A stretch of 9,677 nt of DNA. Origin: a virus (Duplodnaviria > Heunggongvirae > Uroviricota > Caudoviricetes). The position numbers and the translations under genes were made by a program. The stretch is from the IMG/VR virus record IMGVR_UViG_2657244940_000019; one strand, written 5' to 3'. Of the stretch, positions 2,660 through 9,677 are shown piece after piece. Position 1 is the stretch's first letter. Every line of letters starts with the position of its first letter. A model generated the notes under the pieces. The model saw only the letters and a program-made list of their open reading frames with translations. It made no database searches and had not been told where the DNA came from.

Positions 2660-3451
2660 ATGAATCAAATCGACCGTTTGCTCACCATCATGCAGCGCCT
2701 GCGCGACCCGGAAAACGGCTGCCCGTGGGATAAAGAGCAGACATTTGCCACCATTGCGCCTTACACCCTTGAAGAAACCTACGAGGTGCTGGACGCCATC
2801 GCCCGTGAAGATTTTGACGATCTGCGCGGTGAACTGGGCGATCTGCTGTTCCAGGTGGTGTTTTACGCACAAATGGCTCAGGAAGAAGGGCGCTTTGACT
2901 TTAATGATATTTGCGCTGCTATTAGCGATAAATTAGAGCGTCGCCATCCGCATGTTTTTGCTGACAGTTCTGCCGAAAATAGTAGTGAAGTGCTTGCCCG
3001 TTGGGAGCAAATCAAAACCGAAGAGCGCGCGCAGAAAGCGCAGCATTCGGCGCTGGACGATATTCCTCGTAGTTTACCGGCTTTAATGCGTGCGCAAAAA
3101 ATCCAGAAACGTTGCGCCAACGTTGGTTTCGACTGGACGACGCTTGGTCCGGTAGTCGATAAAGTCTACGAAGAGATCGACGAGGTGATGTACGAGGCGC
3201 GGCAGGCTGTTGTCGACCAGGCTAAACTGGAGGAGGAAATGGGTGACCTGCTGTTTGCCACGGTCAATCTGGCTCGTCATTTAGGGACAAAAGCGGAAAT
3301 CGCATTGCAAAAAGCGAACGAAAAATTCGAGCGTCGTTTTCGCGAAGTGGAGCGTATTGTTGCCGCGCGTGGACTGGAAATGACAGGTGTTGACCTCGAA
3401 ACAATGGAAGAAGTCTGGCAACAGGTAAAACGGCAGGAAATTGATCTCTAA
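2660..3451 (+). CDS. mazG: Nucleoside triphosphate pyrophosphohydrolase MazG
   Basis: 263-aa translation MNQIDRLLTIMQRLRDPENGCPWDKEQTFATIAPYTLEETYEVLDAIA... with two MazG-type repeats; conserved position after mazEF. Confidence 0.96.
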   Translation: MNQIDRLLTIMQRLRDPENGCPWDKEQTFATIAPYTLEETYEVLDAIAREDFDDLRGELGDLLFQVVFYAQMAQEEGRFDFNDICAAISDKLERRHPHVFADSSAENSSEVLARWEQIKTEERAQKAQHSALDDIPRSLPALMRAQKIQKRCANVGFDWTTLGPVVDKVYEEIDEVMYEARQAVVDQAKLEEEMGDLLFATVNLARHLGTKAEIALQKANEKFERRFREVERIVAARGLEMTGVDLETMEEVWQQVKRQEIDL

Positions 3452-3464
3452 GGGAATTACGCGG

Positions 3465-3506
3465 TCAAGCGCGATTTGTGTCATTTTTTAAATGACAAGC
3501 GCTTGA
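3465..3506 (+). terminator. Interrupted hairpin 14 nt after the mazG stop (outer arms TCAAGCGC / GCGCTTGA, inner arms GTCATTT / AAATGAC), followed by TTTG; candidate mazG terminator or attenuator
   Basis: Inverted repeats read directly; the downstream T-tract is weak, so function is uncertain. Confidence 0.3.
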
Positions 3507-3594
3507 TTTGCGTCAAAAACATTTACCCCAAAGGGGCTATTTTCTCACTCCTGATTTCAATAGTGCGCTGGCGAAGAGGAGGGATAATGAAAGT

Positions 3595-3623
3595 TTGTGG
3601 CACAGGTCATGTTCGGGTATACT
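3595..3623 (+). promoter_or_regulatory. Candidate pyrG promoter: -35 TTGTGG (3595-3600), 17-nt spacer, -10 TATACT (3618-3623)
   Basis: Good -10 hexamer about 55 nt upstream of the pyrG ATG; weak -35. Motif-based only. Confidence 0.3.
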
Positions 3624-3663
3624 GCTTTCCCGTCCTGGTTATTCCATCGTCTTTTCAACCTAA

Positions 3664-5316
<1,653 letters not shown>

Positions 5317-5388: not shown

Positions 5389-6702
<1,314 letters not shown>

Positions 6703-6721: not shown

Positions 6722-6752
6722 AAAAATGCCAGCCTTCGGGCTGGCATTTTTT
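6722..6752. terminator. Bidirectional rho-independent terminator shared by convergent eno and ygcG: AAAAATGCCAGCC-TTCG-GGCTGGCATTTTTT
   Basis: 9-bp GC-rich stem, 4-nt loop, A-tract upstream and T-tract downstream, lying between the eno stop (6700-6702) and the ygcG stop (6762-6764). Confidence 0.85.
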
Positions 6753-6761
6753 ATGGTTGAG

Positions 6762-7634
6762 TTACCAGCGACCGGACGCGCCGCCACCGCCAGAAGAACC
6801 GCCCCCGCCGCTAAATCCGCCGCCACTTGAGCCACCACCGGAACCGCTGTTGTCTGAATGATAACTTCTACCAGATGCTTTTTTCTGAAGTACACATAAA
6901 CAGGTAAAGACCATAATGGTGGTGAAAGTAAAAAAGAAGAAAAATACAGCAATGGAAAAAGTTTTATCGGAGAACAGGAATAAATCTAAAAGATAGATTG
7001 CTGAAATACAGACACTGCTTTTACATGCGCGACAAAAATTACTGCCTTGATGAAAAAACCAGAAAGGGAAGAACATCACTGCAAATACCCAAAAAATAGC
7101 AAAGTAGTAATGATCGCTGGAAGATGCTGATTCACTTTCTGAAGGATTAACCGAATATTGGTGTTGTGAAGTGAGTCGGTTATTCAAAGCGATTATAGCT
7201 AACTCTAATCCCTTAGCTAATTTTTGTTGTTTAAATGCGGGTATCATGTTGCTACGGATGATATCTCCAGCCAGAGCGTCGGTTACCTTTTCTTCCAGCC
7301 CATAACCTACCTGGATGCGGACAGTGCGATCCGACCAGGCAACAATGATCAGTATCCCATCATTACGTTTGGCATCTCCTAAACGCCAATTGTCAAAAAC
7401 CCTTGTAGCATATTGTTCAATGGAATCGTCTCCGGTGGACGGCACTACTAATACAGCGACCTGCGCCCGTGTTTTATGTGTAATATCCTGCAGTTGCTGT
7501 GTCAGTGATTGTTGTTCAGAAGTGCTTAACGTACCAGTAATATCGGTCACCTGTTGGCGCAGTTCCGGCACAGCAATTTGCTGGGCAAGCCCAGGAAGGC
7601 ACCACAAAGTGAATAGAATAAAGATTAAGCGCAT
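6762..7634 (-). CDS. ygcG: TPM-domain membrane protein, YgcG-like (290 aa from ATG 7634; an in-frame TTG at 7646 would give 294 aa)
   Basis: Signal peptide [22 protein letters not shown]-type domain (...[37 protein letters not shown]...), hydrophobic transmembrane segments, and Gly-rich C-terminus ...[25 protein letters not shown]. Position convergent with eno matches K-12 ygcG from memory; exact identity not verified. Confidence 0.8.
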
Positions 7635-7639
7635 TACGA

Positions 7640-8782
7640 TCACCAACGGTCGGATGAACCGCCGCCTCCTGAAGAACCGCCACCACCGCGGAAAGAATTT
7701 CTCGACGAAGAGCGAGAATGAGCATGAGCATTACGATTCCCCATTTTCCTGTTGCTTTTTTCTCCTGACCCCAGCTTAAGATTGCCAGTAAATTTGGCCA
7801 CAATGATCAGCAGAACGATGCCAGCAATGGTTATTGGGCCGATAAAATGATCAATTAACCCAATAATTGTTGAGATGAATGCAATATCTTTATTACTGGC
7901 GAACACCAGGCACCATCCCACAATAATTATCAGCATCACGACAAACAATGAATTTCGTCCTGATTCACGAAATTGCGGAGTCTTCTTTTGTTTTTTCACT
8001 TTAGCGTTTTTATTTTTTGGGGCCAGCATCATAGGAAATACGCGGCACATATTAAAAACTACTGCGAGACGCTGCCAGCAGATTGCTGCGAAAAATAAAC
8101 TAAAACAAACGACCGACACCCGCCGAATGATGACATCGTCCTGAAAGCAGAAAAACCAGACCGTAGGTGTAATCATTGATATCATCCATATGCCAGGTCC
8201 TGGACGGCTGGTAAATCGCCAGAGGACAATGATGGCAACGATCATCAGCACTGTCCAGGCAAGGCATGGCAGCGAAAGTTGCGGATTAGCAAACAGATGA
8301 TTGGCTAAAGCATCCAAAGGGCTAAGGTTCGCTTTGATATGGGTAAACTGTGCGATGCTTTCAATTCCGCCCGTTAATCCAGCAAAGAGATTGTTTTTTT
8401 CGAATTCTGGCTGCATATGGTAACGAACAATTTGCGCAGCTTGTTCCGGCGGCAACATCTGTTCCAGTCCATGTCCAATCTTCATTGACGCCAGCCCTTC
8501 CGGCCAAACGACGAGAATTAAGATACCTTCGCCATATCGCTTCTCTCCAACGGGTTTCCAGTGATATACCCCGTATCTCTGCGAGGCTGCAAGTTTAATG
8601 TTTTTGCCCCCTGTTGTCGGCGTAACCAACACGGCCACCTGGAAGTGGTTTTGCTGCTCGAGAGTCTGTAAAGCACTTTGTTCTTCTGTCGTTAATGTCC
8701 CGGTTAAGTCAGTCACTGAAGGCAATCGTTCAGCGAATACCTGAAAACCGCATAGCATCAGAAGTAAGAGAAAAATACGCAT
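7640..8782 (-). CDS. TPM-domain paralog with expanded polytopic membrane region (380 aa)
   Basis: Signal peptide [20 protein letters not shown]-type core (...[25 protein letters not shown]...), at least four hydrophobic helices separated by a Lys-rich loop ([23 protein letters not shown]), and tail ...[16 protein letters not shown]. Ribosome-binding site AAGGA before ATG 8782; its stop lies 5 nt before the ygcG start. Confidence 0.78.
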
Positions 8783-8796
8783 ATCAATTCCTTTTG

Positions 8797-9443
8797 TTAC
8801 CAGCGCCCGGAAGCGCCACCGCCACCAGATGAACCGCCACCACCGCTAAAATTGTCATTGTCGAATGAAGAGGATGACGATGATGAATAGTGGGAGGAAG
8901 AATTGCTTCTTGTATGGCGTGATGGCTGGTTGGCATCACGCATCGAATCCCGAACCTTTTTGCCGAAGGGGGTAAAAGCGATGGCAACTGCCAGAAACGG
9001 TGTGGCGAAGCAGAGTAATGTTGTGAGTACTCCCCAGCTTCCGCTGAAACCTGCTATAGGTAAAACAAAGGCCAGTACAATGGCTGCGAAGCAAATTACT
9101 CCCAACGTTTTGATATATCCTCTGGCAGAAATAAACGTCAGTATTATCGCCCAGACTAATAAAGCCCACCAACCGCTAAAGGGCAAAGGGTGATCGGTCG
9201 GTGTTATCGTTGCTGAATTATTCCCCGTCAGGCGACTTTCAATATCGTTGATCCCCTTTTGTAAACCACCAGCCAGGTCGCCTTTTTTAAATGCCGGAAT
9301 AATACTGTTGCGAATAATTTTCCCGGACTGTGCATCCGTAATAATACCTTCCAGCCCGTAACCGATTTCAATACGCACGGTATGATCCTGCCAGGCGACT
9401 AACAGTAGAACGCCATCATCACGGTCTTTATCACCCGGTTTCC
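8797..9443 (-). pseudogene. Third TPM-domain paralog, 5'-truncated by IS1 (about 80 N-terminal codons missing, including the signal peptide)
   Basis: The frame is open from the IS1 junction (9443/9444): ...KPGDKDRDDGVLLLVAWQDHTVRIEIGYGLEGIITDAQSGKIIRNSIIPAFKKGDLAGG... aligns with YgcG residues about 88 onward; then membrane helices, a Ser-rich stretch and tail ...[17 protein letters not shown]. The first possible start inside the native part is GTG at 9378. Confidence 0.75.
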
Positions 9444-9677
9444 GGTAATGACTCCAACTTATTGATAGTGTTTTATGTTCAGATAATGCCCGATGACTTT
9501 GTCATGCAGCTCCACCGATTTTGAGAACGACAGCGACTTCCGTCCCAGCCGTGCCAGGTGCTGCCTCAGATTCAGGTTATGCCGCTCAATTCGCTGCGTA
9601 TATCGCTTGCTGATTACGTGCAGCTTTCCCTTCAGGCGGGATTCATACAGCGGCCAGCCATCCGTCATCCATATCAC
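9444..9677 (-). mobile_element. IS1 insertion sequence, 3' portion in inverted orientation (rest of element lies right of the window)
   Basis: 9444-9466 GGTAATGACTCCAACTTATTGAT is the reverse complement of the IS1 terminus seen at 290-312; the following sequence is the reverse complement of window 79-312. Confidence 0.93.
9459..9677 (-). CDS. insB: IS1 transposase InsB, C-terminal fragment (5' end outside window)
   Basis: Minus-strand translation ...[35 protein letters not shown]...HYLNIKHYQ, identical to the left copy; stop at 9461-9459. Confidence 0.9.

Follow-up and report, generated by a model that had tools for sequence, protein, structure and literature searches.

The three TPM-domain genes found beside eno in the window are the distal part of an accessory Escherichia coli operon, queE / lemA-TPM3-TPM2-TPM1 / eno, that has been split by the insertion sequence IS1. 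The window, by which we mean the whole stretch of 9677 bp, is the complete contig CDRA01000096.1 (assembly GCA_000947375.1). On its minus strand, after eno and convergent with it, three co-directional open reading frames (ORFs) were found: the intact ygcG-type gene TPM1 (6762..7634; 290 amino acids, aa), the intact TPM2 (7640..8782; 380 aa) and a 3' fragment of TPM3 (8797..9443). The locus is already annotated in RefSeq and common in E. coli, and is no recent acquisition. A vertically inherited operon of Enterobacterales, interrupted by IS1 after codon 83 of TPM3, with a scaffold as the proposed mechanism, is in our opinion the best explanation and a probable one.

An operon cut by IS1

The TPM3 fragment is collinear with its counterpart in GPEC1186 until nucleotide 247 of 894 (codon 83), where IS1 begins. 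Codons 84-297 of the 297-aa gene are kept, encoding the second half of the TPM domain, three membrane helices and the tail. The start codon, the signal peptide, the first half of the TPM domain and the promoter are missing, and this copy is a pseudogene. The adjoining partial IS1 (9444..9677, minus strand) consists of the terminal inverted repeat GGTAATGACTCCAAC (9444-9458) and the 3' part of insB, and reaches the contig end. The Pfam match of the called IS1 genes to DDE_Tnp_IS1 identifies an InsB-type transposase which, together with the terminal inverted repeat, places the element in IS1. Both lemA and the upstream region of the operon lie off the contig, and no lemA is found adjacent upstream in the window.

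The same IS1 cut in TPM3 was observed in other assemblies with an identical TPM2. One of them (L007) carries another chromosomal region upstream (the pepA-holC-valS...argF side), and this different region beside the same cut suggests an IS1-mediated rearrangement.

A first-pass annotation of this DNA had described three consecutive minus-strand genes convergent with eno. This arrangement stands, except that the third one is the IS1-cut fragment; the truncation had been missed, as had lemA, the first gene of the operon. The proposed TPM domains were recovered by a hidden Markov model search, in which the three products match PF04536 (TPM_phosphatase, cut-off 22.1 bits). The match covers the full domain in TPM1 (7.9e-38, 129.7 bits) and TPM2 (5e-17, 62.5 bits) and only profile positions 77-123 in the TPM3 fragment (3.8e-12, 46.7 bits). 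The conserved block described as VAW...GYGLE...IIR...IPAFK is present in TPM1 and TPM3, but in TPM2 it is degenerate (VVW...GHGLE...IVR...QPEFE). Hydropathy and sequence agree with the transmembrane segments and the common Gly-rich tail ending in RW in all three products. The genes are separated by 14 nt (8783-8796) and 5 nt (7635-7639) with Shine-Dalgarno-like sequences, taking the TPM1 start at the ATG at 7634 as in RefSeq; this spacing is operon-like, as had been noted, and intact strains show a four-gene locus. The reported AT-rich stretches were also found, with a GC content of 0.36 at 6901-7200 and 0.40 at 7801-8100 against about 0.50-0.52 in eno and pyrG. They correspond to the Phe-rich membrane region of TPM1 (aa 181-240) and to the Lys-rich loop and membrane helix of TPM2. 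Across the whole TPM genes, the GC content at third codon positions (GC3) is 0.40-0.46, versus 0.52-0.57 in eno, pyrG and mazG.

The intact operon in Escherichia coli

In GPEC1186 (99.5% identical to the window), ATCC 25922 and NU14, queE is followed by the divergent lemA-TPM3-TPM2-TPM1 and by the convergent eno, with no mobility genes in the flanks of the locus. The lemA gene lies 13 nt upstream of TPM3 and encodes a 200-aa protein of the LemA family (Pfam, 4e-48; PDB 2ETD, 2.9e-32) with the lipobox LSGC.

From 5426 complete E. coli genomes, DNA of lemA and TPM3 is present in 1454, and that of TPM2 in 1115 (20.5%). Around 340 genomes have a divergent lemA-TPM3 followed by an unrelated membrane ORF of 120 aa, and the rest (about 3960, or ~73%) are K-12-like. 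Every ORF is open in 7 of the 9 triad loci sampled. In 9 of the 10 loci sampled for TPM3, direct translation gives a frame of 297-302 aa that includes the tail, an indication that the operon is mostly intact where present. Disrupted copies also occur: TPM3 of O157:H7 (L003 7356-8030) has a real nonsense codon (TTA to TGA, codon 225) that removes the last helix and the tail, and EC36 has a frameshift in TPM2. The 52-aa "hypothetical protein" annotated next to TPM3 in O157:H7 is a spurious ORF that reads the tail-coding region out of frame, and it is also present in the window at 8784-8987.

A widespread decay of TPM3 was considered from the "missing C-terminus" pseudogene flags of RefSeq and the Prokaryotic Genome Annotation Pipeline, and was ruled out by the 9 of 10 intact sampled ORFs. 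Flagged copies that are nevertheless open are found in L004 (5235-5906), L005 (5401-6072), L006 (5386-6057), L099 and L101 (both 3023-3694) and L100 (3038-3709). These flags look like annotation artefacts of the low-complexity C-terminus.

The locus is mosaic, with breakpoints near a conserved block. Regarding TPM1, two deeply divergent alleles were observed in the 3' two-thirds of the gene (window 6843-7278), with no detectable nucleotide similarity, while the 5' ends are identical. Allele 1, Phe-rich and AT-rich, is the one of the window, GPEC1186 and the K-12 ygcG; allele 2, found in O157, NU14 and B20123, is TPM3-like. The TPM1 protein of the window is identical to its GPEC1186 counterpart. 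TPM2 of the window lacks 12 nt present in GPEC1186, AATCAACAATTA (residues NQQL), an in-frame deletion located at 8668-8669, in the first helix of the TPM domain.

Relatives beyond E. coli and the K-12 arrangement

The operon occupies the same site in other enteric species. E. albertii has queE / lemA-TPM3-TPM2 / eno without TPM1. In Klebsiella spallanzanii (L093 6001-8468), queE is followed by lemA-TPM, a TPM2 orthologue, a CRISPR array with type I-E-like repeats, and eno. The 13-nt spacer from lemA to TPM is also found in the E. albertii and Klebsiella loci. The identity of LemA is graded, with 83-99% among E. coli, E. albertii and E. marmotae, 78-81% in Klebsiella species, 68-71% in Tenebrionibacter and Entomohabitans, 56-61% in Photorhabdus, Brenneria and Biostraticola, and ~50-57% in Pseudomonas and Burkholderiales. 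In a neighbour-joining tree of TPM domains, TPM1 and TPM3 group with the Klebsiella protein in a single clade (93% bootstrap) against 19 LemA-linked outgroups. Synteny, the graded LemA identity and this clade together argue for vertical inheritance with patchy loss and duplication within the lineage. TPM1, which corresponds to the K-12 ygcG, is a duplicate in the enterobacterial clade and, among the loci examined, an extra copy specific to E. coli.

MG1655 has the order queE, yqcG (46 aa), a 13-nt spacer, ygcG and eno, with yqcG (L096 3558-3698) in the position of lemA. The K-12 intergenic region and the first ~35 nt of lemA are 81-84% identical to every lemA haplotype, and in the alignment the LemA signal peptide falls on the hydrophobic segment of YqcG. 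The K-12-type ygcG is a chimera, showing 94-98% DNA identity to TPM1 only from about codon 60 to the end. Thus, K-12 shares with the window operon the site, the upstream region, the lemA-to-TPM spacer and the 3' two-thirds of ygcG; it differs in having the 46-aa yqcG in place of lemA, no TPM2, no separate TPM3, and a divergent allele at the 5' end of ygcG. Since both the region upstream of lemA and the 5' end of this gene persist in K-12, and ygcG is TPM1-like only from about codon 60, the single-copy state would be the derived one. We suggest that yqcG-ygcG is a reduced, recombinant relic of the four-gene operon, and that the triad is not an addition; this is what the sequences look like. In the simplest reading, the K-12 pair would descend from a divergent four-gene haplotype through internal deletions and recombination. 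An origin of the 3' half of yqcG from the 3' end of lemA was also considered, but the local alignment score of 28 is not significant against shuffled sequences (mean 24.6, maximum 40).

The three TPM proteins

TPM1 has a signal peptide, a TPM domain, three hydrophobic helices, a Ser/Gly linker and the tail. Its closest solved relative is BA41 (5ANP; phmmer 6e-23, 33% identity), and other PDB matches are PG0361 (2e-20) and 7TBR (1.6e-18). In the AlphaFold2 model, built from an alignment of 89 sequences, residues 21-150 have a predicted local distance difference test score (pLDDT) above 94, and three helices are placed at 173-249. A disordered linker follows (pLDDT 38), and the final residues, 281-290 (6765-6794), form a beta-strand with a mean pLDDT of 88. 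Using this model, Foldseek retrieved 5ANP (BA41) with a template modelling score of 0.90 and a root-mean-square deviation of 2.1 A. All top matches are TPM structures (BA41, PG0361, 7TBR, TLP18.3, Psb32, BA42, LMTP1 and AscF), the PDB entries besides 5ANP being 2KW7, 7TBR, 3PVH, 8C7I, 4OA3 and 6ADQ_J. The alpha/beta/alpha TPM fold was recovered for TPM1 only.

Across 89 diverse homologues, D31, Q58, G86, G112, E114, D119 and G142 are invariant, and D91, D92, D102, R106, E108 and Y111 nearly so. TPM1 differs from the family at three conserved positions (D91N, E108Q and G115E). In relatives, the intact TPM3 keeps all of the conserved residues, has a signal peptide and scores 141.4 bits with the Pfam TPM profile.

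TPM2, with a signal peptide, a degenerate TPM domain, about five membrane helices, a Lys-rich loop and the tail, has lost seven conserved polar or aromatic residues (D91, D92, D102, R106, E108, Y111 and D119). Full-length orthologues were seen only in Escherichia. The Klebsiella orthologue has lost the TPM core; it still has the signal peptide and the VxDxLTxxEQ start, and keeps the membrane module as well as the tail. Several Klebsiella species conserve this core-less form. With 17 aligned sequences, AlphaFold2 gave an unusable model of TPM2 (mean pLDDT 38.6), and the profile match of TPM2 is what would place it in the TPM family of YgcG-BA41 type. TPM2 is a fast-evolving paralogue in which a degenerate TPM domain is fused to a larger membrane module.

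A Gly-rich tail in LemA-TPM cassettes

The three tails are encoded at 6765..6809 (TPM1, 15 codons), 7643..7687 (TPM2) and 8800..8844 (TPM3), all on the minus strand. They finish in (A/S)S(G/D)RW, follow the pattern F-x-GGGG-xx-GGGG-(A/S)-S-x-x-W and are preceded by a basic, Ser-rich linker. The tail-coding DNA is only 74-77% identical among the copies, which indicates that the protein motif is the conserved item.

To look at the wider family, 80 listed loci were anchored on LemA alone, without using the tail. These are relatives with ~50% identity and do not include the enteric loci, which were found through protein search and exact-protein look-ups. A TPM ORF directly follows lemA in 73 of the 80. 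Where complete, it encodes ~280-310 aa and essentially always has GGGG-xx-GGGG-(A/S)-S-G-x-W at its end; ORFs that depart from this are frameshifted or run off the contig. A second TPM gene (~167 aa), overlapping the stop codon of the preceding one by a few nucleotides, is present in 22 of these 73 loci (e.g. L055 9412-9918). Its product has neither signal peptide nor tail, ends in NELPxxPxxL and is an orthologue of BA42 (1e-15), so BA41 and BA42 would be the two TPM genes of one conserved cassette. Conservation of the cassette, LemA plus a TPM protein with the tail, spans Proteobacteria and extends to Bacteroidetes. The Gly-rich tail ending in W is a hallmark of the family and not peculiar to the Escherichia triad. 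A Gly-rich C-terminal extension in non-photosynthetic Psb32 homologues had already been noted (bioRxiv 10.1101/2025.05.08.652833).

It is conceivable, although we consider it quite improbable, that the invariant tail acts as a docking strand rather than a spacer, the family being a trans-membrane coupling device. Periplasmic TPM domains would then be connected through the helices to a cytoplasmic tail engaging a partner, and Escherichia would have re-wired the device into three tail-bearing paralogues. This idea comes from the last ~10 residues of TPM1, modelled as a confident beta-strand after a disordered linker, and from the foreign or terminal strands that complete TPM sheets, e.g. in AscF/AscG and BA42 (PMC13456599). 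Two further observations point the same way: canonical operons co-encode a tail-less BA42-like TPM protein overlapping the stop of the YgcG-type gene, and the Klebsiella TPM2 orthologue sheds the TPM core yet keeps the membrane module and the tail.

Possible function and alternative readings

Hydropathy reveals three helices in TPM1 and TPM3 and about five in TPM2, all odd numbers, with basic residues after the last helix and cleavable-looking signal peptides. From the helix count and the positive-inside pattern, the TPM domains are predicted to be periplasmic and the tails cytoplasmic. Our search of the literature on LemA plus TPM, on ygcG and on the LemA family in E. coli found no functional study.

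We propose that LemA, a predicted lipoprotein with a four-helix bundle, could form with the TPM paralogues a hetero-oligomeric scaffold in the inner membrane, which would assemble or maintain membrane complexes of the envelope in stationary phase or under envelope stress. The proposal is made by analogy with Psb32/TLP18.3, AscF, MOLO-1 and YdjH with PspA, and falls a little short of being likely. An assembly role for TPM proteins has been argued over a phosphatase role (PMC11237479; PMC12419801). Psb32 is a tail-anchored assembly factor of photosystem II with its membrane helix in the position of PsbY (bioRxiv 10.1101/2025.05.08.652833), and AscF is a subunit of the CIII-CIV supercomplex that binds neither metal nor nucleotide (PMC13456599). 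We favor the scaffold because the TPM2 domain is degenerate yet conserved, the Klebsiella TPM2 orthologue was retained after losing the TPM core, an invariant tail lies on the opposite membrane face, and the partnership with LemA is constant. We consider a dedicated phosphatase role less likely. Expression in stationary phase or envelope stress is suggested by a chromatin immunoprecipitation peak of sigma-S RNA polymerase in the K-12 queE/ygcG intergenic region (PMC4447067), by the binding of PhoP-P to DNA segments upstream of queE that overlap the upstream region of the operon (PMC4974570), and by the annotation of yqcG in MG1655 as a cell envelope stress response protein.

Several points weigh against this explanation as a whole. 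The stress data were obtained on the K-12 relic, in part without separating ygcG from yqcG, and for the Escherichia proteins we infer the topology, the formation of a complex and the regulation of the full operon by stress. In vitro, measurable phosphatase or ATPase activity has been reported for BA41, BA42, AtTLP18.3 and Rv2345, according to the works cited in PMC13456599, and TPM3 and TPM1 keep the conserved acidic cluster, so that an enzymatic role is conceivable. Regarding ancestry, the placement of TPM2 in the enteric clade has only 64% bootstrap, and the GC3 of the three genes, below that of their neighbors, is compatible with an older foreign origin. No named LemA orthologue from Salmonella, Citrobacter or Enterobacter was seen among the top hits, for which reason inheritance appears patchy, and the operon may also have been exchanged among enterics by homologous recombination. 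Finally, the first 59 codons of ygcG and the 3' half of yqcG match no sampled haplotype.

The first-pass annotation had proposed that the two extra paralogues were acquired horizontally, as a lineage-specific expansion beside a pre-existing single ygcG. The minority state of the triad among complete E. coli genomes, the low GC3 and the mosaic alleles with deeply divergent segments would agree with it. However, the site and the gene order are the same in E. albertii and Klebsiella, the divergence of LemA follows taxonomy, and TPM1 and TPM3 belong to a well-supported enteric clade. Furthermore, the region upstream of lemA, the 5' end of lemA and the spacer survive in K-12 together with a chimeric ygcG, and no mobility genes flank the intact locus. 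A recent horizontal acquisition is therefore not sustained, and we regard this origin as very improbable. What remains of the expansion is the presence of three tail-bearing paralogues against one in the canonical cassette, which is not specific to the lineage of this strain, as the 1115 genomes with TPM2 attest. The single ygcG between eno and queE that it gave for K-12 agrees with MG1655, which has yqcG in addition. The annotation had also admitted that the triad might be the ancestral arrangement of E. coli and the single ygcG an error; the K-12 state does look derived, but K-12 does have one ygcG. A different matter is whether the region is simply decaying DNA, with TPM2 and TPM1 as silent remnants heading to a K-12-like reduced state, for which the chances seem to us slightly below even. 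The IS1 at codon 83 is shared by several assemblies, one of them with a further upstream rearrangement; promoter-like sites are at or below chance, O157:H7 and EC36 have disrupted copies, and 73% of E. coli carry the relic only. On the other hand, both TPM1 and TPM2 still have intact ORFs, TPM1 does not differ from its counterpart in an intact strain, ygcG is open in thousands of K-12-type genomes, suggesting that the last gene retains some use, and read-through from IS1 or weak internal promoters are possible. With TPM2 and TPM1 detached by IS1 from lemA and the upstream region, and with promoter-like sites no more frequent than by chance, the window strain probably has a system that is non-functional or poorly expressed.

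On the mechanism, the TPM domains could instead be periplasmic phosphatases, ATPases or ADPases, with paralogues differing in substrate and the helices and tail as mere anchors. An ATPase/ADPase activity is reported for the closest solved relative, BA41; reports also describe BA42, AtTLP18.3 and Rv2345 as phosphatases (as cited in PMC11237479 and PMC13456599), and D31, D91, D92, D102, E108, E114 and D119 are retained in TPM3. Nevertheless, the reported activities are low and the phosphatase assignment is disputed (PMC11237479; PMC12419801); AscF binds no metal and no nucleotide (PMC13456599), and Psb32 acts structurally (bioRxiv 10.1101/2025.05.08.652833). Most of the conserved polar residues are missing from TPM2, which is nevertheless conserved throughout Escherichia, and a simple anchor leaves the invariant tail on the opposite side unexplained. 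We regard a primarily enzymatic role as unlikely, and its fuller version with distinct substrates and passive anchors as similarly unlikely. An anti-phage defence or toxin-immunity system might be suspected from the polymorphic locus with divergent alleles and the CRISPR arrays nearby in some genomes, but PADLOC gave no family at E <= 0.01 for TPM1, TPM2, TPM3 and LemA, no nuclease, NTPase or toxin domains were found, and the cassette is a stable chromosomal pair across Proteobacteria; such a role is extremely improbable.

The interest of the locus goes beyond the window, which is itself an annotated accessory locus partly inactivated by IS1, with nothing surprising left. The range of LemA-YgcG (TPM) cassettes is very wide, extending from Bacteroidetes to Proteobacteria, and no cellular role has been assigned to them. 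The natural E. coli genotypes (the intact operon, the two-gene form, the K-12 relic, and copies disrupted by IS or nonsense codons) make the family genetically tractable. If yqcG and ygcG are leftovers of a larger operon, the interpretation of their K-12 phenotypes would change.

Other features of the window

The convergent neighbor eno (enolase; 5404..6702, plus strand) is a housekeeping gene that fixes the chromosomal position of the TPM locus. Between its stop (6702) and that of TPM1 (6762) there is a GC-rich palindromic hairpin (6726..6747) with an A-run and a T-run on either side. Its exact match is unique, and the folded RNA has -23.3 kcal/mol (z = -4.8 against shuffled sequences). It is likely a bidirectional intrinsic terminator common to eno and TPM1, although it was not among the calls of a simple terminator scan. 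Consensus scans for promoters and terminators within the region were at chance level, with 2 promoter-like sites seen against 4.7 expected, and the Rfam search of the window returned no family.

The contig ends lie inside IS1 (1-312 and 9444-9677), whose two arms (79-313 and 9443-9677) are inverted and 100% complementary. The plus strand between them contains an immunity segment of a lambdoid prophage, mazE, mazF, mazG, pyrG and eno. The prophage segment (313-2004) encodes DUF1391, a LexA/S24-type repressor, Cro and a truncated YdaT, and abuts mazE (~31 nt upstream) at the expected position of relA. No complete E. coli genome covers this junction, which could be either a true rearrangement displacing relA or the result of a chimeric contig.

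Comparison with known systems

The first gene of the intact operon belongs to the LemA family (PF04011; T. maritima 2ETD), with a lipobox instead of a plain membrane anchor. The NCBIfam model of the magnetosome protein MamQ matches the Escherichia LemA at 1.8e-25, but the score of 89.7 is below the cut-off of 250, and this protein is not MamQ.

Psb32/TLP18.3, involved in the assembly and repair of photosystem II, has, as predicted for TPM1, the TPM fold on the extracytoplasmic or lumenal side and a C-terminal membrane-helix tether (matches 3PVH and 8C7I), and works by attaching to a membrane complex under assembly. It differs in having no Gly-rich tail, and E. coli has no photosystem. With 37 and 34 bits against the cut-off of 160 of the Psb32 equivalog NF047379 (NCBIfam), the proteins are not members; Psb32 and MamQ, both sub-threshold, were the only NCBIfam matches.

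BA42 (4OA3/2LT2) is a small stand-alone TPM protein. In the Escherichia and Klebsiella operons examined there is no BA42-like gene, and its position is taken by TPM2, and in E. coli also by TPM1. Three tail-bearing paralogues with no BA42-like gene are a combination particular to Escherichia.

BA41 of Bizionia argentinensis (5ANP) resembles TPM1 and TPM3 in the signal peptide, the TPM domain, the membrane helix or helices and the tail, which ends in GGGGASGGW. It apparently has one helix, against three in TPM1 and TPM3 and about five in TPM2, and canonical loci carry a single tail-bearing protein of this type, against three in Escherichia. The complete YgcG/BA41-type architecture with the tail is found in TPM1 and in the intact form of TPM3, whose N-terminus was lost to IS1 in the window. 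TPM3 is the canonical partner of lemA, orthologous in architecture to BA41.

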